A stretch of DNA of 64,000 nucleotides from Candidatus Aldehydirespiratoraceae bacterium (GCA_965221635.1 OZ244902.1:479957-543956), one strand, 5' to 3'. Shown: positions 11,286-48,523, counted from the stretch's first letter. Translations and numbers: made by a program. Notes: generated from the letters alone by a model not told the origin.

Positions 11286-11326
11286 GCAGCCGCCCGGAGG
11301 TCAACACAGGCCAAGGCAAACCCAGG

Positions 11327-16299: not shown

Positions 16300-16619
16300 G
16301 TCCACCGCTTTCCTTAGAGATCGAAGTGACTCCTCTTCGGTCTGTGCGACCACCGACAGCGCTTCCCCGGCCATCACAACTTGGCACAATCCAGCTAATG
16401 ATTACCCGACACAATTGGGGATAGAGTCAAAACCCACGGAAACCCGAGAAGCAGAGAATCGGGAGATGACATGCCCTCAGCACATGCGACCAACGGCGGA
16501 TGAACCAAATGCCAGAAAATGTTCGCCGCGATGACGTGTAGCCATGTCTGGTCATGCGAAATCTATGGGGAAGCTGCGGCGGCGCGGGCGGTGAGCATGA
16601 GAATTCTGGGGTGACTCAG

Positions 16620-18788: not shown

Positions 18789-18850
18789 TCCCCGGGATGG
18801 ATCTTCTCCTACATATAACCGCACCTATGGCGTTCGCCACCCACCACAAC

Positions 18851-18879
18851 TTGACACAATCCCGTTGACGAAGTAGCAT
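18851..18879 (+). promoter_or_regulatory. candidate promoter in the paralog 2-3 spacer
   Basis: TTGACA (18851-18856), a 17-nt spacer, then TAGCAT (18874-18879). It sits inside a 22-nt box conserved with the paralog 1-2 spacer (16371-16392, where the hexamer is TTGGCA). Confidence 0.35.
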
Positions 18880-19043
18880 CAGAAGATGGCACCAAGACCA
18901 CGAGACACAAGGATCCAGCATCCGCAAGTGAGAGAACACGCGAGTCTGGGTGAAAGCAACAGTGGTAGTGAAACGAATGGAGGGAGCTGGTCCTAAGCTG
19001 GTCGGTCGGCTGGCGTTGATGCTCGAATTGGAGGTTTGGTGTT

Positions 19044-22979: not shown

Positions 22980-24050
22980 ATGCCTCCGGTGCGGCCGATG
23001 CTGGCCAGGGCGGTGAAGTCGATCCCTTCAGGCGACATGGCCTTCGAGCCGAAATGGGACGGCTTTCGCTGCATCGTGTTTCGCGACGGCCAAGAGGTGG
23101 AGATCGCCAGTCGCAACACCAGGCCCCTGAGCCGGTACTTCCCCGAGTTGATCGCCCCGTTGAGGGCCATGTTGCCGTCCAAGGCGGTGGTGGACGGTGA
23201 GATCATCGTGAGACGAGGCGACAGCCTGGCATTCGACGACCTGCAGCAGCGAATCCACCCGGCTGCCAGCCGCATCAACCTGTTGGCCGAAGAGACCCCT
23301 GCGGAGGTGGTGCTGTTCGACGTGCTGGCGGCGGGTGACACCAACTTGATGGACGAACCCTTCGGCGAGCGCCGTGCCCGGCTGGAACAGATGGCAGGCA
23401 CTTTCGAGTGGCCGTTGCATCTGGCGCCCTCCACTTGTGACCGTGACGTTGCGGCGGACTGGTATGTGCGTTTCGAGGGTGCCGGGCTCGACGGGCTGAT
23501 CGCCAAACCCCGAGACGGCTTGTACCAGCAGGACAAGCGAGCCCAGTTCAAGCTGAAGCACACCCGCACCGCCGACGTTGTGGTGGCCGGGTATCGCCTC
23601 CACAAGGACGGCGCCGGGGTGGGTTCGCTGGTGGTGGGCCTCCACGACAACGACGGCGTGTTGCACCATTGCGGGGTGGCCACCAGCTTCACCGCCCGCC
23701 GCCGGGCCGAGCTTCTGGCCGAACTGGCCCCGCACGTGTTGCAAACCCCTGCCGAGCGCAGTGCCCACCCATGGGCCAACTGGATGGATCCCGACGCCCA
23801 CCACGGTGGTCAGGTGATGCCCGGCACCCCCAACCGCTGGTCGGCCCAGCGCGCAACCGGCGCCTGGGTGCCCATGCGCATCGAGCTGGTGGTGGAAGTG
23901 AAGTACGAGGCCATCCTCAACGGCCGCTTCCGGGGCACCACCCGCATGGTGCGCCCCCGCCCCGACCGCACCCCCGAATCCTGCCGCTTCGACCAACTCG
24001 AAGAGCCAACCCCCATGCCCCTAAGCGAAGTGCTGACAGCCCCCGGCTAA
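22980..24050 (+). CDS. stand-alone ATP-dependent DNA ligase (LigC-like)
   Basis: Motif I EPKWDGFR, VVDGEIIV, FDVLA, DGLIAKP and FKLKH are all present. Start at ATG 22980 (MPPVRPMLA) or GTG 22965; the ORF opens at 22821. Confidence 0.85.
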   Translation: MPPVRPMLARAVKSIPSGDMAFEPKWDGFRCIVFRDGQEVEIASRNTRPLSRYFPELIAPLRAMLPSKAVVDGEIIVRRGDSLAFDDLQQRIHPAASRINLLAEETPAEVVLFDVLAAGDTNLMDEPFGERRARLEQMAGTFEWPLHLAPSTCDRDVAADWYVRFEGAGLDGLIAKPRDGLYQQDKRAQFKLKHTRTADVVVAGYRLHKDGAGVGSLVVGLHDNDGVLHHCGVATSFTARRRAELLAELAPHVLQTPAERSAHPWANWMDPDAHHGGQVMPGTPNRWSAQRATGAWVPMRIELVVEVKYEAILNGRFRGTTRMVRPRPDRTPESCRFDQLEEPTPMPLSEVLTAPG

Positions 24051-24053
24051 CCG
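23943..24053 (+). repeat. direct repeat copy A (last ~111 nt of the ligase gene)
   Basis: It aligns with 30511-30622 at roughly nine positions in ten (about 11 mismatches plus one 1-nt indel by hand alignment). Similarity starts abruptly at CGCATG. Confidence 0.8.
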
Positions 24054-27000
24054 CGGCACGGCATCCGACCCTACGTCGCGCACATCACAGGTTGTGACGC
24101 TCGACCGGGGACTTGCGGCGCTTCACGGCGACGCCGTGCATCTGGTGCAGACCTGAGGGGCGCCTAGTTGGTTGGGGGGCGTTGGTTGCCGAACTCGGCG
24201 ACTGTTGCGATGCCGTCTCCGTTGGTGTCCGCACGCAACGCCGGGTACTCGGCGGAGGTGCCAAAGTCCCACGCCTGATCCCAGTGGGTGTAGATGGCGC
24301 TGTGGGCGCCGCCACCGATGAGTTCAGCGGTGGTCTTGGCGAAACCGCCTGCGCTTGTGGTGAGCCCGGTGACGGTTTGATCCCAGTAGCTGTAGATGGT
24401 GTCGCTGCTTGAGTCGGCTATGCCGACGAGCCCGCCGGTGTTCTTGTTGCCCACCACGGTTGCCCGCGAGTAGCTGTGCTGAATGCCGAAACCGTTGTTG
24501 ATCCCGGCCAGGCCGCCCACACGGTTCTTTCCCGTCACCCGACCCGCGGCGTAGCTGTCGCTGATGAGCCCACCGCTGTTATGCCCAACAAGGCCACCCA
24601 CACGACGGTCGCCGGCTATGTGACCGGTGGCGTAGCTGTGGGTGATGATGCTGTTGCTGTAGCCCACCAGACCACCCGAAACTCGCCCGGTGGCGGTGAC
24701 ATCAACGGTGCTGTAGCTGTAGGAAACGTGGTTGACGCTCTCACCGATGAGGCCCCCGATCCATCCGCCTGCGGTGATGTTGCCGGTGGAGGAAGCGTGG
24801 GCAACCACCGCCCAGCTCAGCCCGGCCAGCGCGCCGGTGTTGTAGGCACCGCCGGTGATGTCCACGTTGCCCAGATGCAACCGGTTCACCGCCGCGCCGA
24901 GTCGTAGCTCCGCGAACAAGCCCACGTAGTTCTGGTTGCGGTTGATGTGCAGGTTGCGGATCGAGTGGCCGTTGCCTTCCAGGCGGGCGTCGTAGTGGCT
25001 GATGGGTAGCCAGCCCGCGCCGTTGTTCCAGTACAGGTCGCCTGAGTCTGCTTGCCCGCTTTCGTTGGTGTCGAGGTTGATGTCGGCTGTGAGTTCGTAA
25101 CCCGTGCAGCCACTGTCGGGGCATCCCATGGCGTCGTACTGCCCGCCCTTGAACGCTTCGTAGTAGGCAGCGGCGTCACCCGAACCGGGGGTGCCTGTAC
25201 CGGCCGGGTCCCAGCGGATCGCGTTGAGCTGCGCAGGGCTGGTCACCTCGATCAGGCCGTCATCGTCGAGGTCGTGGTCGTTGGAGCGCTGCCGCCCGAA
25301 CTCCAGCCACGAGGCCTGCCCGTCGCTGTTGAAGTCCACCATCAACACGGGGTATTCCTTGGAGTTGCCGAAGTCCCACGCCGGGTTGCTCCAAGTGGCG
25401 AAAATTCCCGAGTACCCGACGGCGCCGACTTCGGTTTCGCTGTCGCCCTGCAGCCCGGTCTGGGTTTGTGCGGCGCCTCCGCCGGCGCTGGTGGTGGTGC
25501 CGGTGGTGGTGCTGTCCCAGTAGGCGTCGCTGTCCACCGATGCCGAATTCTCGGCGAGGCCCACCAAACCGCCAATGTTCGTTCCGGCAGTTACGGGCCC
25601 CGCGGCGTATCCCTCGTGAACGGTTCCGCCGCTCATGCGCCCGATCAGGCCACCCACGCTGGAGCCGCTGCCACCGGGGCCGGTCACCGAACCGAACGCG
25701 TAAGCGAACTCCATGGTGGTGGACTCGGCCAACCCGATCAGCCCGCCACCGAGATGTGACTGCCCAGACGGGGCGTTCACCGTCACGTCGGACTCGGCGT
25801 ATGAACGCGACACCTTGGCGTTGAGCGATCTGCCGATCAGGCCGCCCACGTCGTTTGTGCCGGTGACCGCGGCGTGTGAGTAGCTCTCGTTGATCTCCAC
25901 CTGCGAGTCCTTGAACGTGCCCGCCACGCCGCCGGTGGTGCCCGAGGGCGCGTTGCCAACCACGGTGCCGGTCACCCCGACACGGCTGATCGGTGCTCGA
26001 CCGGTGCCAACAAGCGCGCCCACGTCGGCCTTGTTGCCGGCCACGGTGATGTTCACATCAGCCAGAACCACGTTGCGCAGGCTCGCAGTGGGAGCGGTCT
26101 GCGCGAACAGGCCGTAAGAGTCGTCACCACCGGCGGTTTGGTTGATGAGCAAGTTGGAGATGGTGTGACCGTTGCCGTCGAAGGTGGCTCGGTACTTGGG
26201 CCCTATCGGCGCCCAGCCCTTGCCGGCGTTCCACCACACGCCGCCGTGATCGGTGGCGTCCACGTCACCGTCGCGGTCGGAGTCGAAATCAAGACTCGTG
26301 GTGAGTTCGTAACCGGTACACACCTGATCGTCGGTGAGGGTTTCGTCCTCGTTGCAACCCATGCCGGCCTCCGCTGTGGGGAACGCCGCCAGGTAGGTGG
26401 CACTGTCCGCATCGGCGACCGTGCCGTTGCCGTCGAGATCCCAGCGCAGCGCATTCAACTGGCGAAGACTGCCCACCTCGATCAGACCGTCATCATCGAG
26501 GTCGTAATCCAGAAGTGTCACCACCGTCACCGCAAACGTGGCCGTGCCGGTTTGGCCGTAGTAGTCGGTGGCCACCGCGCTCACCTCGGCGGCGCCGGCC
26601 GCCACCCCGGTGATGGTGATCACTGTTCCGGTGGTGTCCAACACGGCTGTTGCCGCCGTGGAATCCGAACTTGACACTGTGTACGTCAAGGCGCCTTGGG
26701 TGCCCACGTCGAACACCTCCGCACCGGCGGATTCAATGTGCACCGAGGCTTGCCCGGACACCGCAATCGTGTGTGCGGCGATCGGATTGGTCACCGAAGG
26801 GGCGCTGGTGTCTCGCTGGGTTCCGAACTCGGCCCAACTCGAGGCGCCGTCCCCGTCGAAGTCAGCCACCAACGCCGGATATTCGATCTCGTTGCCGAAA
26901 TGCCACGACGAGTCCGCCCAGGTGCTGTAGATCCCGGTGTAGGTGTCGGCGTTGACAGTGGCGTCGGTTTCGGACCGCAACTGCGAGGTGGTTTTGGCGG

Positions 27001-30000
27001 TTCCGCCGCCCGCGCTGGTGGCCGCAGTGGTGGCAACGGAATCCCAGTACGCGTCCGAATCCACCGTTGCGCCGCCTGAGGCGCTTCCCACGAGCCCCCC
27101 TAGATCACCCGGAAAGGCCGCGTAGTTGCCGTACTGGACCGAACCCGCCGCGAATCCCTCACGAACCTGGCCACCATCTGCTGACCCGACCAATCCACCC
27201 ACATCGGTGCTGGCATTCCACGGCGCGGACACGGCGGACTTGGAATAGCCGTACTCGATGGTTGCGCCGTTGGCGAAGCCCACAAGCCCACCCACTCGGT
27301 GCCGGCCTCCGTCGGAGTTTGTGTTCGATACCGGTCCGGTGGAGTAACTGCGAGTGAGGTTGATGCTTGATGCTCGGCCCAGCACACCGCCCACGTCGTT
27401 GCTGCCTGTCACCGCGGCGGTTGAGTAACTGTCGGCCATCGTCACCGAGAGTCCTCTCAGGATTCCCACGATGCCGCCTGTGGTGCCCTGATTGCCGGTG
27501 CCCGACACCGTCCCGGTCACACCAACACGGCTGATCGCCGCACGGGCGGTGCCGGCCAGAGCGCCCACGTCGGGCTTGTCTCCCACCACGGAAATGTCCA
27601 CGTCGGCCAAAACCAAGCCGCTTATGGCCGCGCCAACACCGATGTGTTCGAACAGGCCGAAGGACTCGTTGCCGCCTTCGGGTTCGTCGATGTACAGGTT
27701 TGAGATCGTGTGCCCGTTGCCCTTGAACGTCACGCTGTATGAGTTCGAGTCGTCACCGATCGGATCCCAGCCCTTGCCGCTGTTCCAGTAGGCCCCGGCG
27801 TGATCGGCGGCGTCCACATCCCCGTCTCCGTCACTGTCGAAGTCAAGGTCCGACATCAGTTCGTAGCCGTCACAACCGTCGGTGGGGCAGCCCATGGCAG
27901 TGATCGGGCTCGGGAATGCCGTCCGGTAAGCAGCAGCATTGCCGGCTGCATCGGCGGTGCCGTTGCCGTTGAGGTCCCAACGCATGGCATTGAGCTGAGC
28001 CAGGTCGCGAATCTCAAGCAAACCGTCGTTGTCGCCGTCGTAGTCGACGTTGGTGCTCACCGACACGTTCACGGTGGTGCTCACGCTCGCACCGTCGGCG
28101 TCAGTCGCGGTGATCACCAGCGGGCGATCTCCCGAGGCGTTCGCGATCACGTTCACCGTTGCGGTGGCCGCGTCGACTCTCGCAGAGTGATACGACTCGT
28201 GCAGGGTCGACACTGAGTAGTTGAGCGTGGTGCCGTCGGGATCGGTGAACACCGCGGCGCCGGAGGTTTCGAGAGGGATTGAACCCTGCCCGTACAAGGG
28301 AAGGCTCAGCGTGGCGACCGGGTTTGTGACGGTCGGGAATCCGTGGCCCGAAGCCACCGGGAACTCCACGAAGACGGCGCCGTGAGAATCGGTGGCCGTG
28401 ACCCGAATCGTGGCCGTGCCCTTGGCCACACCGGTGATGGTGACCGTGTCGGTGGCGCTGTTCAACGCCACGGTGGCCACCGAGGTGTCCGAAGAGGTGA
28501 CGCTGTAGGTGGGCTTGTCGTTGCTGCAGTATCCGAACACCGGGTTTGTGCCCGCCAGGGCAACCGTCGCGGTGGCGCCCACCGACACGTGCTGACCGGT
28601 GATGTCCCGGTTCTTGTGTACGCGCGTGTTGACGCGCTGGGTGCCGAACTCCGACCAAGTGGCGGCGCCGTCACCGTTGAAGTCCGCCACAATAGCGGGA
28701 TACACACAAGACGTGCCGAAATCCCATTCCGCTGTTGTCCAATCGCTGTAAATCCCCGTGTAGCCGGCAGCGGCAACGGTGGTGTTGGTGTCGATTTGCA
28801 GCTCCGAGGTGGTCTTGCCGGTGCCGCCGTCGCTGGTGGACTGACCCGTTGAGGTGGTGTCCCAATACGAGTCGGCGCTCACAACGCTGGAGTTGTCGAA
28901 CTTGTAACCCAGCAATCCGCCGACATCACCGGATGGGCCGTCGGACACCGCGCCGGTGGCGAAGGACTCGGAGATTTCCGAGAGGGTCAACTGTCCCGCC
29001 AGGCCGCCCACGTATCCGCTGGTGCTCTGAGTGACCGACACCGCACCCGTTGCATAGGACTGGATGACTTTGCTGTAGGCGTACACATCGCCGATGAGGC
29101 CGCCTACTCGGCAGAGCTTGCAGTTGCTTTCGGTGACCGCGCCGGTGGCGTAGCTGCGCTTCGCCGTGGAGTTGCGCAGTGTTCCGATCAGTCCGCCTGC
29201 GGCCACCGCGCCGTCCGAAACGTGGACGGTCACCGAGGCGGTGGAGTAACTGTCGGTGGTGGACGCGGCGTCTGCTCCGTCGGGGGTTCTTTGGTATCCG
29301 ACCAGTCCACCTGCGTGGGTCAGAGATCCGAGGGGAGGCGACAGGTTGCTCACGTTCACCGCGCCGGTGGAGTACACGGCGCGCAACTTGCCGCTGCTGT
29401 GCCCGGCCAGCGCCCCCACCTTCAGGTTGGCTCCGCTCGCGGTTATCGAAACGTCCGGCAGGCCGAGATGACGCACCTCGCCAGCAGTGCCGACCTTGGC
29501 GAACAAGCCGAGTTCGGTGAGGGAGGCTGCGTCTTGTGCGTTGATGTAGAGGTTCGAAATGGTGCGGTTGTTGCCGTCCAGGATGGCGGTGTATTCGCCG
29601 CCGATTGGCGTCCATCCCGCGCCGGAGTTCCAGTACGCGCCGTTGTGATCCGATGCGTCCACGTCGCCGTCGTTGTCCGAGTCGAAGTCCAGGTTGGCGT
29701 TGAGTTCGTAGCCGGTGCATGTGGGAGTCACCGCCTGCGAGTCACATCCCATCGCCGGCGCGGCGTTGGGGAACGCAGCGTCATAAGACGCCTGGTCCGC
29801 GGCTGCCACGGTGCCATCGCCGTCCAGATCCCAGCGCAACGCATTGAACTGCGCCAGATTGGCGATCTCTATGAGGCCGTCGTCGTCGGTGTCGTAATCG
29901 TTGGACAAGGCTTGAGCACCCAGCGGCACCGGTGTCGCGACAACAAGCAAAGCCGCCACCAACGCCATGGCCGCCGAGGCCACGGCCAGCTGCACCCACC

Positions 30001-30510
30001 AAACCCGGCATCTGGGTGGCAGACTGATTCCGATCACTTCGCGATCTACAGTGTCTCGGGCATTATCCCACATTGTTTGACCTCCACAAACAGACTGGCT
30101 GGCAACGTAGCAACGCCCTCGGCTCTTGTAAAGTCGAACGTTCTAGGGTCAGGTGTTGTGGTGGATGAGGGAGAGGTATGGTCTGATCAAAATACCAAGT
30201 AGAAGTTATTTGTCCGGATTTAGAGTGTTGCCAAGAGAACTATTGTCTTGATTAGTGATTGTTGAGTAACACTCATTTGCTTTGGCCAACAAAATCCCAG
30301 CACAAGGCGGAGAAGTCACACTAATGTTGTGTTGCAGAGATCAATAATTTGACAAGCGGATTGTGGGGACTGAGCCAATTCTGCGGGCGAGCCGAGTCTC
30401 GAGACACGCCCTGCAATCATGCAGTTTCAGGCCCACCAGGATGCCGTGCGGCAAAGAACAGTGACCGCAACCAAGAATCGGCGACGCAAACCCGAAAGAC
30501 CCTGCCATGG
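24054..30510. mobile_element. putative inserted cassette bounded by the ligase-3'-end direct repeats (no recombinase inside)
   Basis: Its content is the 1969-aa gene plus its AT-rich upstream region, bracketed by the 23943-24053 and 30511-30622 repeats. Mobility is an inference only. Confidence 0.35.
24164..30073 (-). CDS. giant secreted four-module protein (GLUG-motif beta-helix repeats, Asp-rich Ca-binding-like motifs, Ig-like domains)
   Basis: 1969 aa with an N-terminal hydrophobic signal/anchor (VQLAVASAAMALVAALLVVATPVPLGAQA). There are four copies of the module DYD.DDDGLIE...L.QLNA.RWDL.G.GT...MGC...C.GYEL...LDFDSD.DGDVDA.DH...YWN.G.GW.PIG...GNGHTISNLYI, followed by many (V/A)GGL(V/I/A)G repeats and YWD...KTT.EL...YPAL.ADFNGDG. 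Big/cadherin-like segments lie between modules. GGAGG sits 8 nt before the ATG. Confidence 0.85.
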   Translation of the reverse strand: MWDNARDTVDREVIGISLPPRCRVWWVQLAVASAAMALVAALLVVATPVPLGAQALSNDYDTDDDGLIEIANLAQFNALRWDLDGDGTVAAADQASYDAAFPNAAPAMGCDSQAVTPTCTGYELNANLDFDSDNDGDVDASDHNGAYWNSGAGWTPIGGEYTAILDGNNRTISNLYINAQDAASLTELGLFAKVGTAGEVRHLGLPDVSITASGANLKVGALAGHSSGKLRAVYSTGAVNVSNLSPPLGSLTHAGGLVGYQRTPDGADAASTTDSYSTASVTVHVSDGAVAAGGLIGTLRNSTAKRSYATGAVTESNCKLCRVGGLIGDVYAYSKVIQSYATGAVSVTQSTSGYVGGLAGQLTLSEISESFATGAVSDGPSGDVGGLLGYKFDNSSVVSADSYWDTTSTGQSTSDGGTGKTTSELQIDTNTTVAAAGYTGIYSDWTTAEWDFGTSCVYPAIVADFNGDGAATWSEFGTQRVNTRVHKNRDITGQHVSVGATATVALAGTNPVFGYCSNDKPTYSVTSSDTSVATVALNSATDTVTITGVAKGTATIRVTATDSHGAVFVEFPVASGHGFPTVTNPVATLSLPLYGQGSIPLETSGAAVFTDPDGTTLNYSVSTLHESYHSARVDAATATVNVIANASGDRPLVITATDADGASVSTTVNVSVSTNVDYDGDNDGLLEIRDLAQLNAMRWDLNGNGTADAAGNAAAYRTAFPSPITAMGCPTDGCDGYELMSDLDFDSDGDGDVDAADHAGAYWNSGKGWDPIGDDSNSYSVTFKGNGHTISNLYIDEPEGGNESFGLFEHIGVGAAISGLVLADVDISVVGDKPDVGALAGTARAAISRVGVTGTVSGTGNQGTTGGIVGILRGLSVTMADSYSTAAVTGSNDVGGVLGRASSINLTRSYSTGPVSNTNSDGGRHRVGGLVGFANGATIEYGYSKSAVSAPWNASTDVGGLVGSADGGQVREGFAAGSVQYGNYAAFPGDLGGLVGSASGGATVDSDAYWDSVATTAATSAGGGTAKTTSQLRSETDATVNADTYTGIYSTWADSSWHFGNEIEYPALVADFDGDGASSWAEFGTQRDTSAPSVTNPIAAHTIAVSGQASVHIESAGAEVFDVGTQGALTYTVSSSDSTAATAVLDTTGTVITITGVAAGAAEVSAVATDYYGQTGTATFAVTVVTLLDYDLDDDGLIEVGSLRQLNALRWDLDGNGTVADADSATYLAAFPTAEAGMGCNEDETLTDDQVCTGYELTTSLDFDSDRDGDVDATDHGGVWWNAGKGWAPIGPKYRATFDGNGHTISNLLINQTAGGDDSYGLFAQTAPTASLRNVVLADVNITVAGNKADVGALVGTGRAPISRVGVTGTVVGNAPSGTTGGVAGTFKDSQVEINESYSHAAVTGTNDVGGLIGRSLNAKVSRSYAESDVTVNAPSGQSHLGGGLIGLAESTTMEFAYAFGSVTGPGGSGSSVGGLIGRMSGGTVHEGYAAGPVTAGTNIGGLVGLAENSASVDSDAYWDSTTTGTTTSAGGGAAQTQTGLQGDSETEVGAVGYSGIFATWSNPAWDFGNSKEYPVLMVDFNSDGQASWLEFGRQRSNDHDLDDDGLIEVTSPAQLNAIRWDPAGTGTPGSGDAAAYYEAFKGGQYDAMGCPDSGCTGYELTADINLDTNESGQADSGDLYWNNGAGWLPISHYDARLEGNGHSIRNLHINRNQNYVGLFAELRLGAAVNRLHLGNVDITGGAYNTGALAGLSWAVVAHASSTGNITAGGWIGGLIGESVNHVSYSYSTVDVTATGRVSGGLVGYSNSIITHSYATGHIAGDRRVGGLVGHNSGGLISDSYAAGRVTGKNRVGGLAGINNGFGIQHSYSRATVVGNKNTGGLVGIADSSSDTIYSYWDQTVTGLTTSAGGFAKTTAELIGGGAHSAIYTHWDQAWDFGTSAEYPALRADTNGDGIATVAEFGNQRPPTN

Positions 30511-30622
30511 CGCATGATGCGCCCCCACCCGTACCGCACCCCCGAATGCTGCCGCTTCGACCAACTCGATAGAGCCAGCCCCCATGCCGCCAAGCGAAGT
30601 GCTGACAGCCTCCGGCTAAGCG
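30511..30622 (+). pseudogene. frameshifted relic of a DNA-ligase 3' end (direct repeat copy B)
   Basis: It translates RMMRPHPYRTPECCRFDQLD, against RMVRPRPDRTPESCRFDQLE in the ligase. A 1-nt insertion (cgaTagagcc) then breaks the frame. There is no ligase-like sequence upstream of 30511. Confidence 0.7.
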
Positions 30623-30646
30623 AGCCACATCGAAGGCCTGCGATAT

Positions 30647-30907
30647 CTAGGCGCGAGACTGCGATCCAAGCGGCAGATCCTCGTTGATCCCAACAACCTT
30701 GAGGTCGGGCACCCGTTCCACATCAGCCAGAGCCGACCGCACCGCCTGTGACAGCGATTCCGCCTCCCGGTCGAAACCCAGGTACTGCACGCCGTCGCGG
30801 CTGCCGAGCAGAGCGTCGTCGCAGCCGGCTTCGAACAGCGCGTCCGCCACGGCGTCCGTGTGAAGGTCGGCACCTTCCACGATCAACAGAAAATTGAACG
30901 AATCCAT
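30647..30907 (-). CDS. small acidic hypothetical protein
   Basis: 86 aa from ATG 30907 (MDSFNFLLIVEGADL...), with GGGAGG 6 nt upstream. It lies downstream of and co-oriented with the HTH-ImmA/IrrE gene. No family recognised with confidence. Confidence 0.5.
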   Translation of the reverse strand: MDSFNFLLIVEGADLHTDAVADALFEAGCDDALLGSRDGVQYLGFDREAESLSQAVRSALADVERVPDLKVVGINEDLPLGSQSRA

Positions 30908-31110
30908 CCTCAACCTCCCTCAGCCATGTGCTCGCACTCCCGAAGCGCAGCCAGCAGCCAACGCGCATGATCAGCAGGACTTCGCGGCGTAGAGGGCCAC
31001 TGACCCCTGGGTGGCGCCTCCGACACTACCCGGTGCTTTAGCCGGTCTCGAGTGTTGCGGGGTGTGTGCTTGTGGGAGTGGGAATCCCAGCCTGACCTAG
31101 GGGTGCTTGG

Positions 31111-32187
31111 CTAGGTGTTGGCGGCGCGTTGTGGCTGTGGTGGGTTCGCCACAGGTTGTAGGTGGCGGCGGGCTTGCAGGAACGGGCTGTTTGGGGTGCC
31201 TGGTGAGAACCCTGTGATGCTGTTCACCTCTTGGGGGCTGAGCCCCTGACTGAGCATTGCCTCACCGATGTTGGCTGTGAGCCTGGGGCGCTCGGGCGTG
31301 AGTTGGTCGCTCAACGGTTCCTGACGCCGCCAACCCTTTGCGCTGAAACGCTTGTAGAGGTTGGTGCGCTCACGGACCGTGATCACCTCCAGCCGGTGCG
31401 CGCGCTCGATCAGGGCCTGCATCGAGACACCCCAGTAGCGCTTCAGGTCGTGCAACTTGCCGGTGGTGAGGTTCCGCAGTTGGGAGCGAATCAGGTTGGC
31501 CGGCATCAAGAACTCCGCCGCGAAATCGGTGGCCTCGACCTCCGGGTCGTCGGGCACACCTTGGCTGTGAAGGCACAGGTGCCCGAGTTCGTGCGCCAGC
31601 GTCAGTCGACGGCGGTCCGTTGGCGCTGCAATGTTGAGCATCACCACCGGATGGGTACCGCTCCATTGGGACAAGCCGTCCACGCGCCGTGTTCCGAAAT
31701 CCGAGTCAATGATGACGCAGCCTGCAGCTTCCATCCACTCGGCCACGCTTCGAACGGGACCTTGCGGCATACGCCACTCGGCGCGCAGGATTCGCGCCGC
31801 GGTCGCGGGTTCGTATTCGAATGGATCAAGCCAAGGGAGGGTGAGATCACATCGAATGTCGATCTGTTCGCCGACCTTGTCCACATGCAGCCGGTACAGG
31901 TTCAGCTGGGCCTCCAGCCGTCGCCACGCCGAAGGCTTCGCCGTGGCGCGTCGGCGCATGTGAGCATGGGCGGCCAGCGCACCTTCAAGGCGCCTCGCAC
32001 GTCGCAGGAGATCCGCCGTGACTCCCAATTCGGTAGCGATCCGCGACAGAGCGTCATCAGAAACATCGCGCAGGTCGTTCTCGTAGCGCGACAGCGCCGC
32101 TTGGGTGATGCCCAACCGGTCGGACAGGTCCAGTTGGGTCAGCCCTCGTGCTCTGCGGGCAGTAGCGATGGCCTCGCCCAAACTCAT
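31111..32187 (-). CDS. XRE-family HTH fused to ImmA/IrrE (M78, COG2856) zinc metallopeptidase
   Basis: Start re-picked at ATG 32187 (MSLGEAIATARRARGLTQLDLSDRLGITQAALSRYENDLR is the HTH). A downstream HEXXH (LTLAHELGHLCLH) sits in ImmA/IrrE context. The 559-aa ORF to 32790 is rejected because it runs antisense through hipB. Confidence 0.8.
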   Translation of the reverse strand: MSLGEAIATARRARGLTQLDLSDRLGITQAALSRYENDLRDVSDDALSRIATELGVTADLLRRARRLEGALAAHAHMRRRATAKPSAWRRLEAQLNLYRLHVDKVGEQIDIRCDLTLPWLDPFEYEPATAARILRAEWRMPQGPVRSVAEWMEAAGCVIIDSDFGTRRVDGLSQWSGTHPVVMLNIAAPTDRRRLTLAHELGHLCLHSQGVPDDPEVEATDFAAEFLMPANLIRSQLRNLTTGKLHDLKRYWGVSMQALIERAHRLEVITVRERTNLYKRFSAKGWRRQEPLSDQLTPERPRLTANIGEAMLSQGLSPQEVNSITGFSPGTPNSPFLQARRHLQPVANPPQPQRAANT

Positions 32188-32320
32188 GGCCCAGAATAAA
32201 CCCGGCCCCGAGTAACGGTTGGCCGGGCGGCAAGGTGTCGTTGGTGCTGGTGGCGGGCCTGGACTGGCTTGCGGGTCTTGTATGGATCCGGGGCTTGCGG
32301 AGGATGCGCGGCTCAGCGAT

Positions 32321-32339
32321 CTGTGAAGTATCTTCAGAG
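32321..32339. promoter_or_regulatory. palindromic candidate operator in the divergent ImmA / hipBA control region
   Basis: CTGTGAAGTATCTTCAGAG has 8-nt arms with one mismatch around a central T; the inner arms TGAAG/CTTCA are perfect. It is followed by TAGTAT (32341-32346), only 9 nt before the hipB ATG at 32356. Confidence 0.4.
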
Positions 32340-32355
32340 ATAGTATGCTTTCGAT

Positions 32356-32682
32356 ATGAGTGGGGATCGACCTTTGTTGCCTCAGACTTTGGAGGCGGTT
32401 CGGTTGCTTGGCAGTCAGGTGGCTTTGGCTCGGCGTGAGCGGCGTTGGACACTTGCGGAGCTCGCCGAGCGGGTGGGGGTGTCGGTGGTGACGATCCGCA
32501 AGGTGGAGCGGGGAGATCCCAGCGTCGCTCTGGGCACCGCCCTGGAAGCAGCAGCGCTGGTGGGAGTCGTGCTGTTTGACCCCGACCCCACACGTCGAGC
32601 CTTGGAGGCCGAGATCGTACGGGCACGCCTGGCGTTGCTTCCTGCCACCGTGAGACCTCGCAAAGTCGATGACAACTTCTGA
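32356..32682 (+). CDS. hipB: HipB-like XRE-family antitoxin
   Basis: 108 aa with the HTH WTLAELAERVGVSVVTIRKVERGD. It overlaps the downstream hipA by 14 nt. Confidence 0.75.
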   Translation: MSGDRPLLPQTLEAVRLLGSQVALARRERRWTLAELAERVGVSVVTIRKVERGDPSVALGTALEAAALVGVVLFDPDPTRRALEAEIVRARLALLPATVRPRKVDDNF

Positions 32683-33919
32683 CCCCATCGCCGAAGCGAA
32701 CAGCGCCTTCGTGTGGGTGTGGCTGCCGGGCCACAGCGAGCCCGTGGTGGCGGGCAGGTTGGACGACCGGGGCTCGGTGGTGACCTTCACCTACGCGGCC
32801 AGCTACCTGGAATCCCCCGAGGCGATTGCGCTGTACGAACCCGAGCTGGCGCTGCGGCGTGGAGAACTGGTTCCTCGTTCGGGAGAGATGGCCGGATGCA
32901 TTGCGGATGCCGGCCCCGACGCCTGGGGGCGGCGAGTGATCGAGTATCGCCGCACCGGCGGATACGGGCAACTGTCGCCACTGGCCTATCTGCTGGAGTC
33001 CGGGTCGAATCGAATCGGCGCGCTCGACTTCCAGCGCTCGGCCACCCACTACGAACCTCGGGGCGCTGACACTGCGCCACTGAACGAGCTGGCCGAGGCA
33101 GCCGACCGGTTCGAGTCGGGTGAACCGCTCACCCCTGCGCTCGACAGGGCACTGCTGCACGGAACCTCGGTTGGCGGGGCACGCCCCAAGGCGCTTCTCA
33201 CGGACGCGGATCGCCAACTGATCGCGAAGTTCTCGTCATCGACTGATCCCTATCCGGTGGTGAAGGCCGAGTTCGTCGCTATGGAACTTGCACGCCGGGT
33301 CGGAATAGACGTTGCGCCGGTGGAACTCGTGACCGCGCTCGGCAAGGCGGTACTCCTGGTACACCGGTTCGACCGCCCAAGCGGGGGTGCTCGACGCATG
33401 ATCGTGTCCGCGCTCACGATGTTGGACGCACACGACGCCCTGGGCATCGCAGGGCGCTACTGCACCTACGTGGATCTGGCTCACCGCATCCGGGAGCGCT
33501 TCACCGATGCGGACGCCACCCTGCGCGAGTTGTTCTCACGGATCGTGTTGAACGTCCTGGTCGGAAACACAGACGACCACGCCCGCAACCACTCGGCGTT
33601 CTGGGACGGCACGAACCTGACGCTCACACCCGCCTACGACATCTGTCCCCAACTGCGCGCTGGCGGCGAGGCTGCCCAGGCAATGGCGTTCGGCCCCGAC
33701 GGTGACCGACTGAGCCAAGTGGCGCGATGTGTGACCCACGCAGGCCAATACCACCTCACAACAACCCAGGCACGCGAGATCGTCAACAGCCAAGTGGAAA
33801 CAATCCACGACCACTGGCACGAGGTGTGCGACCTGGCCGCTCTAAACAAACCTGACCGGCAACGACTGTGGGAACGGCAGTTCCTCAACCCCTACGCACT
33901 AGAAGGCCACCACCACTGA
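32669..33919 (+). CDS. hipA: HipA-family serine/threonine kinase toxin
   Basis: 416 aa. It has an N-terminal coupling domain, then GTSVGGARPKALL and the catalytic-loop motif LVGNTDDHARNHSAF. Confidence 0.85.
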   Translation: MTTSDPIAEANSAFVWVWLPGHSEPVVAGRLDDRGSVVTFTYAASYLESPEAIALYEPELALRRGELVPRSGEMAGCIADAGPDAWGRRVIEYRRTGGYGQLSPLAYLLESGSNRIGALDFQRSATHYEPRGADTAPLNELAEAADRFESGEPLTPALDRALLHGTSVGGARPKALLTDADRQLIAKFSSSTDPYPVVKAEFVAMELARRVGIDVAPVELVTALGKAVLLVHRFDRPSGGARRMIVSALTMLDAHDALGIAGRYCTYVDLAHRIRERFTDADATLRELFSRIVLNVLVGNTDDHARNHSAFWDGTNLTLTPAYDICPQLRAGGEAAQAMAFGPDGDRLSQVARCVTHAGQYHLTTTQAREIVNSQVETIHDHWHEVCDLAALNKPDRQRLWERQFLNPYALEGHHH

Positions 33920-33952
33920 TCTGAGCACCAAGGTGAATCAGTGGCCTTGCCC

Positions 33953-34120
33953 TCAACCGCCGAACTCGGTGGCATCGTCGTGTTCCTCTATTCCCGGAAG
34001 CCTCTCGAGCCCCCTGTCAAAGCCTCTTTGCTCCCGGCGCGTGCGTTCCAGGTCCTCAAGCACATCGCTGCCAGCAAGACGGACTCGACGCTCAGCCTCC
34101 ACCCCTGGCAGCATCAACAT
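33953..34120 (-). CDS. 55-aa charged ORF translationally coupled to the methyltransferase (absent from the ORF track, under 60 aa)
   Basis: Hand translation gives MLMLPGVEAERRVRLAGSDVLEDLERTRREQRGFDRGLERLPGIEEHDDATEFGG*. Its ATG (34120-34118) shares a base with the methyltransferase TGA (34122-34120). Confidence 0.35.
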   Translation of the reverse strand: MLMLPGVEAERRVRLAGSDVLEDLERTRREQRGFDRGLERLPGIEEHDDATEFGG

Positions 34121-35067
34121 CACGGGATGCGGTCTCGAACCTCTTGTCCTCGATCACGCCCGTGGTGCTCGGGGAGGGTTACGGGGGGTAGGTGGGCTAG
34201 TTGGGTGGTTAGGTTGGTGTAGTAGGGCTCGTGTGCTTCTATGCCTATTGCTTTGCGGTGGCGTTCGAGGGCTGCGAAGGCTGTTGTGCCTGATCCGATG
34301 AAGGGATCCAGCACGACGTCGCCGGGGTCGGTGAACAGGTCTATGAACCAGCCCGGCAACCACCTGGGAAAGGCGGCGCTGTGTCCCCTGTTGGCGCACT
34401 CCGTGGCGCCGTGCAGCACATTGTTGGGATACACCTTGCTGCGACCCTGCCAGTTTTGCACTCGCTTGCCGAAACCGCTGCCCACTCGCGACTCGTCTCG
34501 CTGCTGATCGGTGGCGCTGAGGTTGCTCATGCGCTGCTTGGACCAGTCACCCACAGGGATCATCACCGCGTCCTGGTTCATCTTGAACTGACGCTGCTTG
34601 TTGAACTGCAACAACCTCTCCCACGCATCCCTGAACCGGTTGGGCCACTTGCCGGGGTAGCTGTTTTTCTTGTGCCACACGAACTCCTCTGTCCACAACC
34701 ACCCCTGAGCCCTCATGGCGAGGATCAACTCCAACACGTACGTGTGACGCTCTCCGTTGACCGCCGGCTCCTTGATGTTCAACACGAACGTGCCGGACGG
34801 TTTCAGCACCCGGCGAAGCTGCCCGGCGATCGGCATGAACCAATCCACGTAGTGCTGCGGACTGACGCCGCCGTAGGAGGATGCACGCTGCTTCGCGTAG
34901 GGCGGCGACGTAACCACCAGGTCGACCGAATCGTCGGGCAACCCGGTGAGCAACTCCCGGCAGTCGCCATGGAGAATCGTTGCTTGAGGCATCAAATCTC
35001 GATCCGTCGCGTCGTTCTGTGACCATCCCCGCTGGGGAAGCTTCGAGCGAAGCTCGCCTCCGCTCAC
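34120..35067 (-). CDS. beta-class DNA methyltransferase (N4-cytosine or N6-adenine), no adjacent endonuclease
   Basis: Motif IV DLVVTSPPYA precedes motif I VLDPFIGSGTTAFAA, which is the beta permutation. The likely start is ATG 34992 (MPQATILHGDCRELL). Confidence 0.8.
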   Translation of the reverse strand: MSGGELRSKLPQRGWSQNDATDRDLMPQATILHGDCRELLTGLPDDSVDLVVTSPPYAKQRASSYGGVSPQHYVDWFMPIAGQLRRVLKPSGTFVLNIKEPAVNGERHTYVLELILAMRAQGWLWTEEFVWHKKNSYPGKWPNRFRDAWERLLQFNKQRQFKMNQDAVMIPVGDWSKQRMSNLSATDQQRDESRVGSGFGKRVQNWQGRSKVYPNNVLHGATECANRGHSAAFPRWLPGWFIDLFTDPGDVVLDPFIGSGTTAFAALERHRKAIGIEAHEPYYTNLTTQLAHLPPVTLPEHHGRDRGQEVRDRIP

Positions 35068-35161
35068 GCTATGGCATGGCTAGCGGCGGGGTGTGACAGG
35101 CGACGTGCTGTGGAGGGCCGGGGGCGTCGGCAAGGCCGTGGGCGCGGTGCCTTCGGGGGTG

Positions 35162-36025
35162 TCAGGATGGGGCTAGTTGGTGGGCTCTTGTGGCCAGGGC
35201 TCCGGCGCCTATGGCCTGGCAGAGTTGGTCGAAGCCTTGGCGGGGGCCTGTCCATTCCATTTCGTCGACCGTGGCGGACACCGGCGCTTCGAGGTCGACG
35301 GTGGCTATGTGGCGAAACAGCTTGGCGTCGTCCATGCGCTCGCGCAGCGTGTCGGCGAGGCGGGCGGCTCCTCGCACGTTCACGTCCCAGTCGTCGGACG
35401 ACGCCGGGATTCGCTCCAGGTGCGGATAGAAGCTCAACACCGCGGCCGCGGACTTGGCGCCCCAGCCGGGCAGACCCTCGAAACCGTCGGCGGAGTCGCC
35501 CACCAAACCGAGGTAGTCCGGGATCGACTCGGGCGCCACACCGAACTTGTCCACCACACCGGCGTAGTCGCAGATCACATCACGGCGACGGTCGTGCTGC
35601 ACCACCCGCCCGTCGGTGCTCACACACTGCGCCAAGTCCTTGTCGGGAGTGCAAATCACCACCTGCGACACCCGATCATCGGCCGCTGCCATCGACGCAG
35701 CCGCCGCAAGGGCGTCGTCGGCTTCGTAGCGGACTTGGGGCCACACCGCGAACCCTGCAAGCTCGAGCAGGTGCTCCACCTCGTCGAACTGGGCGCGCAG
35801 ATCCGGGTCCACGCCGCTGCCGTCCTTGTAGCCCTCGAGCAGGTCGTTGCGAAAGCTCTCGATCACGTGATCGGTGGCAATGCCGATGTGGGTGGCGCCG
35901 TCTTGCACCAGATCCAGCACCGTCTTGAGCACCCCTCTCTGGGCGCCCCGGCGAGCGTCACGGTTGTTTCGGGCGTAATGGAAGCGGAACAGCTCGTAGG
36001 TGCCGTCCACCAGGTGAACTCTCAC
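35162..36025 (-). CDS. 5'-3' exonuclease (FEN / Pol I N-terminal-domain family)
   Basis: 287 aa. It has LVDGTYELFR, YEADDALAA and the H3TH motif GDSADGFEGLPGWGAKSAAAVL. The GTG start overlaps the mce stop (GTGA). Confidence 0.8.
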   Translation of the reverse strand: MRVHLVDGTYELFRFHYARNNRDARRGAQRGVLKTVLDLVQDGATHIGIATDHVIESFRNDLLEGYKDGSGVDPDLRAQFDEVEHLLELAGFAVWPQVRYEADDALAAAASMAAADDRVSQVVICTPDKDLAQCVSTDGRVVQHDRRRDVICDYAGVVDKFGVAPESIPDYLGLVGDSADGFEGLPGWGAKSAAAVLSFYPHLERIPASSDDWDVNVRGAARLADTLRERMDDAKLFRHIATVDLEAPVSATVDEMEWTGPRQGFDQLCQAIGAGALATRAHQLAPS

Positions 36026-36438
36026 GGAGCTTCCGCCGGCTCCTGAACGAGTTCGATCAGCGTGCCGAAGGAGCCCTTGGGATGAACGAAGGCGATCGTG
36101 GTGCCCCGGCTCCCGGGACGGGGCTGCTCGTCGATGAGCTTCGCCCCCGCGGCAGCCATCGACGCCAACGCTGCCTCACAGTCGCGCACCCGGTATCCCA
36201 CGTGATGCAAGCCCTCGCCGCGCTTGTCCAGGTAGCGGGCCACGGGCGAATCCGGTCGGGTGGCGGTGATCAGCTGCACGTAGCTGTCGGCCACCGCCAG
36301 CATCGCCTCTTCCACGCCATCGCTCTCCACCACCTCACGATGAGCGACCTCCGCGTCGAACGCCTCCCGGTAGTAGTCAACAGCAGCGTCAAGATCACGA
36401 ACAGCGATGGCCACATGGTCAATCTCGGTAAGCAACAC
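36022..36438 (-). CDS. mce: methylmalonyl-CoA epimerase (VOC superfamily)
   Basis: 138 aa with IDHVAIAVRDLDAAVDYY...GEGLHHVGYRV...IAFVHPKGSFGTLIELVQ. Confidence 0.8.
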   Translation of the reverse strand: MLLTEIDHVAIAVRDLDAAVDYYREAFDAEVAHREVVESDGVEEAMLAVADSYVQLITATRPDSPVARYLDKRGEGLHHVGYRVRDCEAALASMAAAGAKLIDEQPRPGSRGTTIAFVHPKGSFGTLIELVQEPAEAP

Positions 36439-36604
36439 GCCCCCACCCTACCCAACCCCTGCCGACGCCCTCATCCCGTGAGCCCGGGAACGCCACCGCC
36501 TCCGCACCCCGGTCAACCATGAGGCGCCTGCTCGCCGATATCGATCCTCCCGCAAGCAGCTGGACAAGATCCAGCACCCGCGCGGCCGCACGACCTTGTG
36601 CTGA

Positions 36605-37342
36605 CTATGGTGACACTCCCGGTTCTGGGAGAGTCTGAATCAATGTGTCCATGCTGACACGCTCCGAACTCTCTGCTTGGTCATCCTCCATGGAGGCTCT
36701 ACCAATTAGTACAAATCGATAAACATCCGGTGCGATGTTGTGACCTGCCAGGGACCATCGAACCTCTCTTTCGGCGAACTCTTCGGAGTTCGATATGATT
36801 ACGCCAGTTTCCTCCCCTTCATTGCCGAAAAGAAATGCAACGTTCATCGCAATGCCGTCCGAGAAACACCGAAGGGCGCCGATCGGCGATATGGCCTCTG
36901 CAATTTCAGCATCTACTTCAGAGGCCAACCCGAGTTCCTCCAAGTATTGCGCGACCCCCGACCGTTGCAGGATTAGAGGATCTATATCGCTGCATGGAGA
37001 CCACACAACTGTTGACAGCACTTCCGCCAACTCTTCGGGAGTAATGCTTCCGTCTGTGGAGGGGGCAGTTGACGTGCCGCCTGGCGTTGAAACAGGGGTG
37101 GCTGACTCAGGCGTGCTTGCAGCCGGCACCGATGTCTCAGAGCCGACCTTGCTGGATGTGGGTGGATCAGACGTGGGGAGATCAGATGCTGGTGGCTCAG
37201 ACATCGATGTAGGTAATGTCGATTGCTCGGAACTGGGCGAGCCCAGGAGGACTACGCCTACCCAGATGCCGAGGCCGAGCACCAGTACGCCAAGAGCACC
37301 CGCAAGGGCCTTCAGTGATTTCTGCTTGCTGATCGCTTGCAT
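36605..37342 (-). CDS. membrane-anchored hypothetical protein on lower-GC DNA
   Basis: 245 aa. It has an N-terminal TM (LAGALGVLVLGLGIWVGVVLLG), a Ser/Thr/Pro linker and an acidic globular C-terminus. A spot GC count for 36661-36720 gives 29/60. Confidence 0.5.
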   Translation of the reverse strand: MQAISKQKSLKALAGALGVLVLGLGIWVGVVLLGSPSSEQSTLPTSMSEPPASDLPTSDPPTSSKVGSETSVPAASTPESATPVSTPGGTSTAPSTDGSITPEELAEVLSTVVWSPCSDIDPLILQRSGVAQYLEELGLASEVDAEIAEAISPIGALRCFSDGIAMNVAFLFGNEGEETGVIISNSEEFAEREVRWSLAGHNIAPDVYRFVLIGRASMEDDQAESSERVSMDTLIQTLPEPGVSP

Positions 37343-37776
37343 GGTTGGTCCTCCTTATTTTGGGGGTTGGTAGTTGGACCTTGACTAGCAGCAGCACCGC
37401 CTCAAACTATGGGCTGCTACACACAATTGGATGGGCTTGATGAGACCACCAATGATTGTATGCAATAGTGAAATCTGGACCGGGTTCCCGTGGATGCATG
37501 ACAAGAAAGCTGATCCGATCGCAGGGCTGGCATGTGCGAGCTGACACGTCCTCGGGCATGGGCACGGTCTAGTGCTTGGGCGGCCGCATTGAAACCCGCT
37601 CCTGATGCACCTTCTGCTCGCTGTTGAAGTTATCTGGTATGCGGCTGTGAGTGTGTGAGTGGCAACAATTGATATGCGCTATGTGATGTAATTTGGCCTT
37701 GACTCGGCCCCATCTGTATACCGATTATTGTTCCGGTTGTTTCAATGTTTAGTGACGCCCACCAAGGCTGAGACAA

Positions 37777-38385
37777 CTAGCTGTCGGTTACCTCTTGGCG
37801 GCCTTGTAGGGCTCGGCTTAGGGTTAGCTCGTCGGCGTACTCGAGGTCGCCGCCAACGGGTAGGCCGCTGGCGATACGCGTTACTCGCACTCCCAGCGGC
37901 TTCAGGTACTTGGTCAACAGGGCCGATGTGGCCTCACCCTCGAGGTTTGGGTTGGTGGCGATGATCACCTCGTCCACATCCTCGTCGGCCACACGGGCCA
38001 TCAACTCCTTGAGGCGTAGCTGTTCCACGCCGATGCCGTCCACCGGACTGAAAGCGCCCTGCAACACGTGATAGCGGCCCGGGAACTGACCCGTTCGCTC
38101 CACGGCAACCACGTCCTGGGCGTCCTCCACAACACACACGAACCTGGACTCCCGCTTGGGATCCACACACACCGCGCACTCCCCGCCCTGCTCAGCGAAA
38201 TTGAAGCACCTCGGACAGTACGAGATCTTTGCCTTGGCCTCCGAGATTGCCTTGGCGAGGCGCTGCGCGTCTTCGTTGGATCCCTTGAGCAGGTGGAACG
38301 CCACCCGCTGTGCCGACTTGGGCCCGATGCCCGGCAGGCGGCCCAGCTGGTCGATCAGTTCCTGAACGGCAGCCGAGTAACTCAT
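37777..38385 (-). CDS. recR: recombination protein RecR
   Basis: Start at ATG 38385 (MSYSAAVQELIDQLGRLPGIGPKSAQRVAFHLL). It has the zinc finger CPRCFNFAEQGGECAVC and a Toprim region. Confidence 0.9.
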   Translation of the reverse strand: MSYSAAVQELIDQLGRLPGIGPKSAQRVAFHLLKGSNEDAQRLAKAISEAKAKISYCPRCFNFAEQGGECAVCVDPKRESRFVCVVEDAQDVVAVERTGQFPGRYHVLQGAFSPVDGIGVEQLRLKELMARVADEDVDEVIIATNPNLEGEATSALLTKYLKPLGVRVTRIASGLPVGGDLEYADELTLSRALQGRQEVTDS

Positions 38386-44664: not shown

Positions 44665-44697
44665 TCCCAAGGCGCCACGTCCGAATCCACCCGTCAC

Positions 44698-44818
44698 CGG
44701 TGAGCGCAACCCACCGCGGGTGAGCCCAGCCCGTTGTCGGTGAGTGCAACCCGTCCGCGGTGAGCACTGCCCGCCGTCGGTGAGCGCAACGCGTGCCCGG
44801 TGAGCACGTCTCATTGCG
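44698..44818 (+). repeat. six tandem ~20-nt repeats, consensus about CGGTGAGCRCAACCCGYCSG
   Basis: Units start at 44698, 44717, 44738, 44758, 44778 and 44798, each beginning CGG(G)TGAG. The array is intergenic between tadA and tRNA-Ser. Confidence 0.85.
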
Positions 44819-44990: not shown

Positions 44991-45077
44991 GGAGAGTTGC
45001 CAGAGTGGACGAATGGGGCGGCCTCGAAAGCCGTTGTGGCCTCCGGGTCACCATGGGTTCGAATCCCATACTCTCCG
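44991..45077 (+). tRNA. tRNA-Ser (anticodon CGA)
   Basis: 87-nt class II tRNA. Acceptor GGAGAGT/ACTCTCC, anticodon loop CTCGAAA, long variable arm, T-arm ATGGG-TTCGAAT-CCCAT. Confidence 0.9.
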
Positions 45078-45108
45078 CCGCATCGACCGGAGCCCAAGGA
45101 GCACCGCC

Positions 45109-48209: not shown

Positions 48210-48367
48210 CCACCAACAATACCCACCAAACCCCCCAAAGGCCCCAAAACCACCGCGCATCCCAAAGACCAACCAACCAACCGCGCAGCCCGCGACCAAG
48301 ACCAACACCAAGTCCCCAAAGGCACCCAGGGGGCAGCAAAGCCAAGGCGGGCGGGCCAGAAAATCAA

Positions 48368-48460
48368 GGCGGGCGGGTGGCCGGTGGCCGGCTTACGGAA
48401 CAATCTGCAGCGAAGCGAAGCCGTTCCGGAACCGGCCACCGGTCAGGCCCCGCCCGCCGG
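48368..48460. repeat. 93-nt extended-hairpin element, copy 2
   Basis: GGCGGGC.GGG.GGCC.GGTGGCCGG...CGGAAC, a 21-nt loop, then GTTCCG...CCGGCCACC..GGCC..GCCCGCC. It includes an 11-bp perfect helix (48381-48391 with 48432-48442). It lies in the divergent pncB / ABC-exporter spacer. Confidence 0.8.
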
Positions 48461-48523
48461 AGTGACCAACAGCCAGACACCGAGCAAAGCAGACGAAGGC
48501 CGGGTGATTCGTAGGATGCGCAG

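Follow-up and report, generated by a model that had tools for sequence, protein, structure and literature searches.

The closest described relatives of the genes treated here are the type II toxin-antitoxin (TA) pair HipBA, the RosmerTA system, the type II restriction-modification (RM) systems with methylases such as M.PvuII, the candidate phage-defence system PDC-M06 and the ImmR/ImmA regulators of ICEBs1. In RosmerTA, an anti-phage TA system, diverse toxins are paired with an antitoxin, RmrA, that is an ImmA-type protease and often carries an N-terminal helix-turn-helix (HTH) domain (PMC10440598; 10.1101/2022.05.11.491447). PDC systems are 145 candidates that were defined by their embedding in BREX, DISARM or type I RM loci (10.1101/2024.01.29.577857). 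Here we examine how these systems compare with a block of about 4.5 kb within a 64,000-nucleotide stretch of DNA from Candidatus Aldehydirespiratoraceae bacterium (GCA_965221635.1, OZ244902.1:479957-543956), hereafter the window, a high-GC sequence (~0.65). The block encodes a hipBA pair, an HTH-ImmA/IrrE fusion protein, an acidic protein of 86 amino acids (aa) and a DNA methyltransferase (Table 1). A preliminary description of the window had placed these genes, together with a 55-aa open reading frame (ORF), in one compact cluster. Our results favour another reading, to which we give a probability of roughly three in four: the block is a recombination hot spot with independently acquired addiction-type modules, one of them intact and three reduced to their antidote half.

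The location of the block is best understood from its flanks. On one side lie a 5'-3' exonuclease, a glyoxalase-fold protein, RecR and DnaX, as identified with Pfam, and core genes continue from 35162 on; on the opposite side are a 1969-aa GLUG-repeat protein, an ATP-dependent DNA ligase (DNA_ligase_A_M and DNA_ligase_A_C domains) and an epoxide hydrolase. Probing with the exonuclease yielded 80 loci in related species (63-76% identity), the closest among the GTDB species representatives being Acidimicrobiales, Aldehydirespiratoraceae and Microthrix-type metagenome-assembled genomes (MAGs). These relatives keep the order DnaX, RecR, glyoxalase, exonuclease, followed by the convergent ligase and epoxide hydrolase. 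The exonuclease-ligase gap, measured in the 65 loci where both genes were in reach, is 0-216 bp in 35 species and at most 540 bp in 40; it reaches 11.1 kb in the window (24051-35161), compared with at most 6.1 kb in the other loci. Neither hipBA, nor the HTH-ImmA gene, nor the 86-aa gene was found at this junction in any of the 80 related loci. The block is accessory and non-housekeeping, as the preliminary description held, and lies within an 11.1-kb insertion between the exonuclease and ligase genes. Occupied junctions in other species carry lineage-specific metabolic genes (HD_3, RraA-like, thiolase and two-component genes), N6_N4_Mtase genes (L021, L042, L061 and L087; related loci are given by L numbers) or a 923-aa N6_Mtase protein (L076). 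In L025, the junction (11054-13565) holds two N6_N4 methylases around a truncated SfiI-like restriction endonuclease ORF, which is a decaying RM system. The recurrence of methylases in several species indicates that the junction is a variable site with repeated uptake of modification genes.

Judged by its sequence, hipBA is an intact, self-contained type II TA pair, and the only module of the block that passes as a complete system. The preliminary description of a divergent, overlapping hipB-hipA pair holds: the hipB stop and hipA start overlap by 14 nt, and 168 bp separate the pair from the fusion gene. HipB additionally matches couple_hipB (TIGR03070), below the cutoff. HipA possesses a P-loop-like SVGGARPK motif as well as the catalytic loop GNTDDHARNHS and the Mg-binding motif PAYD, which align with GNEDMHLKNFS and PAYD of HipT (8ezr). 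Among 80 metagenome loci with HipA relatives (49-75% identity), hipB lies directly 5' of hipA in 74, and in the remaining six the sequence available on that side is shorter than 160 bp; hipB is thus present in 74 of the 74 loci in which enough upstream sequence is available. Similarity of the hipB upstream region to that of relatives is confined to the hipB-proximal ~40 bp, from about 32315, and no alignable similarity was detected farther upstream. This AT-rich stretch contains an imperfect palindrome, ATCTGTGAAG-TAT-CTTCAGAGAT (32319-32341), and an alignment of hipB upstream regions revealed a comparable AGAxAGTAT..TTTCGATATG element 5' of hipB in relatives; it is likely to be the hipBA promoter/operator. 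From what is typical of the family, HipB would repress the operon and neutralise HipA, and HipA kinase, once freed, would phosphorylate its target so that growth stops.

The gene divergent from hipB encodes an XRE-type HTH fused to an ImmA/IrrE peptidase, in agreement with the preliminary description. Pfam places HTH_3 at residues 7-61 (expectation value, E, 7e-14) and Peptidase_M78 at residues 153-263 (E 2e-19), the HELGH motif is intact, and the protein matches 14 PADLOC RmrA models (best E 1.8e-51). More than 1000 homologues, at 57-73% identity and nearly all 346-350 aa long, extend from Acidimicrobiia to Streptomyces, Lentzea and Nonomuraea; by this comparison, the RmrA-like family is unusually conserved across classes. 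Relatives carry a homologous gene for a protein of 206-216 aa directly upstream, which overlaps the HTH-ImmA start by 1-4 nt. It was seen in L173, L172 (Lentzea), L211/212 (Streptomyces rimosus), L204-206 and L209, and the proteins are 42-52% identical among lineages. This partner of about 205 aa, the presumed toxin, belongs to no Pfam family and matches no PADLOC model, those of RmrT included. Its gene is frameshifted in L207 and L210 and called at only 117 aa in L208; in L170/171 no more than a fused stump is left, and L213-215 lack it. We consider the actinobacterial two-gene module a candidate RosmerTA-like subtype. Within the window, no trace of the partner was found anywhere, and its place is taken by the divergent hipBA. 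DNA similarity to L173 ends at 31252, and the last 47 residues of the window protein were considered as possibly foreign; this was rejected, as the protein alignment reaches residue 346 of 358, leaving only a 12-aa extra tail relative to the relatives.

The genomic settings of these two modules bear on whether the five genes work together. The preliminary description had raised the idea of a combined persistence kinase, protease-controlled switch and epigenetic mark. In such a single defence island, an ImmA-type protease would sense infection and cleave an HTH protein, for instance HipB, thereby freeing HipA for abortive infection, and the methylase would mark self DNA. The RmrA-like gene and hipBA do diverge over a common 168 bp, and the HTH of the fusion, whose best PDB match is 7t8i, is most like ICEBs1 ImmR. 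ImmR is the natural substrate type of ImmA. Moreover, HTH cleavage has been proposed as the way in which ImmA-domain antitoxins work (PMC10440598). In a screen for HExxH motifs in all ORFs of at least 110 aa in the HipA-relative loci, one lineage (L115/L168) carries a genuine M78 gene, standalone and ImmA-like, about 1.6 kb upstream of hipB. It is the sole M78 gene near hipBA, however, and the methylase and the 86-aa gene accompany hipBA in none of the 80 loci. In L092 and L093, which hold the closest relatives of hipBA, an HExxH ORF of 347/363 aa that runs divergently to hipB proved to be a spurious antisense frame and not an ImmA fusion. Conversely, neither hipA, nor the methylase, nor the 86-aa gene was found near RmrA-like relatives in 16 loci, which represent about five distinct genomic settings, and the RmrA-like family has a conserved partner gene of its own. 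We therefore regard a single island as very improbable. Of the two observations that the preliminary description had itself set against its view, independent occurrence of the genes in other genomes is what we find; synteny of the region in all relatives is not.

The 86-aa acidic protein is indeed encoded downstream of the fusion, where the preliminary description had located it, and it has no Pfam match. Its identity was revealed by PADLOC: the protein fits positions 3-78 of the 174-position PDC-M06B model, i.e. its N-terminal half (E 1.1e-15). The family, with 75 homologues, shares an invariant EAGCDD...FDREA motif. An AlphaFold2 model (predicted local distance difference test, pLDDT, 86.7) has a plain ferredoxin-like b-a-b-b-a-b fold, and a PDB fold search with this model gave no significant match. 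PDC-M06B occurs in 30 IMG/VR contigs with GC contents of 0.35-0.72 and falls into two size classes, short forms of 75-115 aa and long forms of 149-188 aa that carry a C-terminal HTH-like domain. In 14 of the 30 viral loci and in L009, a related MAG, a basic protein of 75-103 aa, PDC-M06A, is encoded directly upstream of B (E 1e-18 to 5e-27). Since B is acidic (pI, isoelectric point, 4.05, versus 11.2 for A) and its long forms carry a DNA-binding domain, our results suggest that B is the antitoxin-like half.

The A gene of the window is reduced to a 3' remnant. A local hidden Markov model (HMM) built from five PDC-M06A proteins matches a window ORF at 30910-31110 (E 2e-6), and DNA identity to the intact A gene of L009 amounts to 87% and begins only at 30993. 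L009 carries a second PDC-M06 pair (9750-10356), in which A is intact and B is 95% identical to the window copy, and a cluster record puts this same B protein on the window's own contig as well. L009 and the window (30551-30993) share 443 bp at 87% identity, including a stretch similar to the ligase 3' end, which indicates that the PDC-M06 pair and its flank were duplicated within the genome. These observations also bear on a pairing of the HTH-ImmA gene with the 86-aa gene, as implied by the preliminary description, in the manner of RosmerTA with the antitoxin first. The two genes do lie on one strand, 197 bp apart, and gene order in ImmA/Rosmer pairs is variable, with the toxin first in 58% (PMC10440598). 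However, the 86-aa protein is PDC-M06B, whose partner is PDC-M06A, and the remnant of A sits between the two genes; an ImmA neighbour was seen in none of the 39 loci that encode relatives of this protein, relatives of the ImmA gene use the upstream ~205-aa partner, and an acidic protein is antitoxin-like. We find such a pair scarcely credible, and assign the 86-aa protein to a separate two-gene module.

As the preliminary description had noted, the methyltransferase has the motif order of its class, TSPPY (motif IV) ahead of FIGSGTT (motif I), and no adjoining endonuclease. Its start at 34992 is that of the gene caller on record, with an alternative GTG at 35067. The best solved relative is M.PvuII (1boo; E 1.7e-29, residues 6-257 of 290), in which TSPPF is aligned to TSPPY, and by homology and the SPPY motif only, the enzyme is most likely specific for N4-cytosine. 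It is 73% identical to a homologue at the equivalent junction in L025. Plasmids of 5.6-6.5 kb from Acinetobacter, Klebsiella, Aeromonas and Photobacterium encode methylases that share 63-68% identity with it, which implies cross-phylum horizontal transfer of the gene family. In two such plasmids the methylase stop is overlapped by the next gene, annotated as a PmeII-family restriction endonuclease in NZ_CP030758 and as a hypothetical protein in OW849041. No endonuclease gene lies beside the window methylase, which is flanked by only 170 bp upstream and 200 bp downstream to the hipA stop, and no similarity to PmeII-family or SfiI-like restriction endonucleases was detectable there. GGCCN5GGCC (the SfiI site) occurs 9 times in the window, where 5 +/- 2 are expected.

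The 55-aa ORF described as coupled to the methylase stop does exist and overlaps that stop; its status as a gene was not confirmed. Its only match among 1,835,955,588 representative proteins is itself, neither a homologue in the fetched loci nor a Pfam match was found, and its GC content at third codon positions (GC3) is 0.65, compared to 0.74-0.83 in neighbouring genes. It is probably not a functional, conserved gene. We also considered it as the 5' stump of a restriction gene and rejected this, as it resembles neither the plasmid PmeII-family endonucleases nor the SfiI-like remnant of L025.

The ligase-side boundary reported in the preliminary description is real, as are the core genes on the other side; it is a repeat of the ligase 3' end. 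The two copies enclose a 6.4-kb segment (24061-30506) that contains only the gene of the 1969-aa GLUG-repeat, surface-type protein and its 430-bp leader (GC 0.50), and no recombinase. As the ligase 3' end is repeated at 30507-30625, the GLUG segment looks like a later insertion between ligase and block that regenerated the ligase 3' end. The repeat would then be the older ligase-side edge of the block, and 30626-35161 the older part of the insertion.

The direct repeat resembles an att duplication, and could thus be read as the trace of a prophage or integrative and conjugative element (ICE) that once integrated at the ligase 3' end and then decayed, with the block as its regulatory or immunity end. 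The presence of PDC-M06 in viral contigs and of the methylase family in phages and small plasmids would fit such an origin, which the preliminary description had put forward as a degraded integrative element. Against it, the repeat, which is the sole direct repeat, brackets the GLUG segment instead of the block, and no att-like repeats flank the block itself. The interval 24051-35161 contains neither an integrase nor an excisionase, no phage structural or conjugation genes and no tRNA, the nearest tRNAs being at 4246 and 41356. In addition, GC content is similar to that of the flanks, and the closest relatives of each module differ and stand in differing contexts. A decayed element of this kind is therefore unlikely. 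No Rfam family was found in 23500-37800, and a promoter/terminator scan gave no result above shuffled expectation.

Table 1 Coordinates of the block, its genes and remnants, and of comparable modules in related loci.
Feature	Position	Strand	Remarks
Block studied	30626-35161		~4.5 kb; ligase-side repeat to exonuclease-side core genes
Ligase 3'-end duplicate	30507-30625	+	~90% identical to 23943-24060 (~118 bp; direct repeat and alignment)
86-aa acidic protein, short-form PDC-M06B	30647-30907	-	GGGAGG-N6-ATG start; pI 4.05
PDC-M06A 3' remnant, 'WPSTPRSPADHARWLLAALRECEH'	30910-30996	-	~29 codons; 5' two-thirds missing
XRE-HTH + ImmA/IrrE (M78) fusion, RmrA type	31111-32187	-	358 aa, full length
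Divergent intergenic region	32188-32355	.	hipB-proximal ~40 bp AT-rich
hipB	32356-32682	+	108-aa HTH antitoxin (predicted); HTH_3 and HTH_31 (Pfam)
hipA	32669-33919	+	416-aa HipA-family Ser/Thr kinase toxin (predicted); HipA_C (E 2e-46) and Couple_hipA
55/56-aa ORF	33953-34123	-	overlaps methylase stop (GTGA); position where plasmid homologues begin restriction gene
Beta-class DNA methyltransferase, solitary	34120-34992	-	290 aa; N6_N4_Mtase E 4e-41; same direction as upstream exonuclease gene
Two-gene module copies in other loci	L173 4363-6041; L172 4381-6044; L211 2354-4044; L204 2375-4053		206-216-aa protein and ~347-aa HTH-ImmA protein

We propose that four unrelated addiction-type modules would have arrived independently at the variable exonuclease-ligase junction. 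There, hipBA would have been kept whole, and the RmrA-like antitoxin, PDC-M06B and the methylase would have been kept without their toxic partners. Loss of a toxin or endonuclease would be tolerated, whereas loss of the antidote first would be lethal; decayed modules would therefore be expected to retain their harmless half, and the protective halves would survive. The surviving solo genes might serve in orphan methylation, as a transcription factor, or in cross-protection against the intact second copy of PDC-M06A.

Several points weigh against this proposal. For the RmrA-like module and for PDC-M06, the assignment of the toxic half is tentative. Many short-form PDC-M06B genes stand without a recognisable A (in L001-L008 and in roughly half the viral loci), and a solo B may thus have its own function and not be a leftover. 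The methylase family is also solitary in phages (Salmonella phage SE2, a Klebsiella oxytoca phage-plasmid), and the window copy may accordingly never have had an endonuclease. The divergence of the RmrA-like gene and hipBA over 168 bp could permit regulatory cross-talk. Finally, exonuclease identity to the relatives used here is no higher than 63-76%, so that the comparison is one at species level. In a different interpretation, the solo RmrA-like protein, PDC-M06B and the methylase would form a working anti-addiction set against incoming elements or phages with matching toxins or endonucleases, or the RmrA-like protease would have acquired HipB as a new substrate, so that infection would trigger the hipBA kinase as a switch. 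We judge this interpretation to be quite improbable.

With independent acquisition and decay as the preferred reading, the apparent compact defence cluster turns out to consist of independent modules that lie side by side at a hot spot by chance, and the block a natural example of addiction-module decay, in which the antidote is retained and the toxic partner lost three times in 4.5 kb. For the TA and defence field, PDC-M06 emerges as a small basic protein plus an acidic EAGCDD-domain protein, with or without HTH, that is common in prophage contigs, and the ~205-aa plus HTH-ImmA module as a highly conserved actinobacterial module in which the first gene is often pseudogenised.

Other features of the window were recorded alongside. 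Between the glyoxalase-fold gene and recR, a 1.3-kb stretch of lower GC (~0.55; 36439-37776) carries a 245-aa ORF rich in Ser, Thr and Pro, whose product is hydrophobic in an N-terminal segment and has no Pfam match; the glyoxalase-recR spacing is 40-100 bp in most relatives, which indicates a further small insertion. Three tandem paralogous genes at 14101-21194 (732, 744 and 716 aa; spacing 2471 and 2403 bp) encode ankyrin-type repeats, as read from the unit 'GTPLHVAVRTGNVDMAKLLLDRGADVN'. A sequence of ~100 nt forms an inverted pair (13394-13497 and 48367-48470, 35 kb apart, 91% complementary) and recurs in L009 at 16112-16208, i.e. it is a dispersed intergenic repeat. Two short tandem arrays were also noted, one of about five 23-nt units (59650-59764) and one of about six 20-nt units (44690-44816), which lies shortly upstream of a tRNA-Ser (44991-45079).

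All components of the block belong to known or catalogued kinds, namely HipBA, an RmrA-type antitoxin, an M.PvuII-like methylase and PDC-M06, and none is categorically new. Compared with HipBA (Escherichia coli HipA/HipB; the Legionella HipT structures 8ezr and 7vkb), the window pair likewise has an HTH antitoxin gene overlapping a downstream HipA_C kinase gene, and its HipA possesses the N-terminal Couple_hipA domain and a catalytic loop (GNTDDHARN) and PAYD that align to the solved kinases. It differs in that HipA matches PDB chains only distantly (E about 1e-6) and HipB, at 108 aa, has a C-terminal extension. RosmerTA, type II RM and PDC-M06 each fail as complete systems in the window for want of a partner. 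With RosmerTA (RmrT/RmrA; Millman et al. 2022, Ernits et al. 2023), the fusion protein shares the XRE-HTH N-terminus and the HEXXH ImmA/IrrE Zn-peptidase, and its relatives show a toxin-first, overlapping partner. Unlike in RosmerTA, an adjacent toxin gene (RmrT) is missing from the window, where the upstream gene is the divergent hipB and the downstream 86-aa gene is PDC-M06; moreover, the partner family of the relatives fits neither PADLOC RmrT nor Pfam, and 57-73% identity is maintained between Acidimicrobiia and Streptomyces, Lentzea and others. The ICEBs1 ImmR/ImmA regulators resemble it in combining an M78 peptidase with an ImmR-like HTH; the window has both in one fused protein, and no integrase or element gene in 24051-35161. 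The methylase resembles M.PvuII and other beta-class N4-cytosine methylases of type II RM systems in its TSPPY before FxGxG, its near-full-length alignment to 1boo and its 63-66% identity to methylases that belong to RM pairs on plasmids; it departs from them in standing without an adjacent restriction gene, and its assignment to N4 and not N6 follows from homology and SPPY only. The 86-aa protein fits the N-terminal half of PDC-M06B from the PADLOC candidate PDC-M06 (Payne et al. 2024). The window copy differs from this candidate in that B is the short form, without the HTH-like domain in which members of 146-188 aa end, and A is cut down to ~29 C-terminal codons, whereas the paralogous locus and prophage contigs carry A and B as intact pairs.

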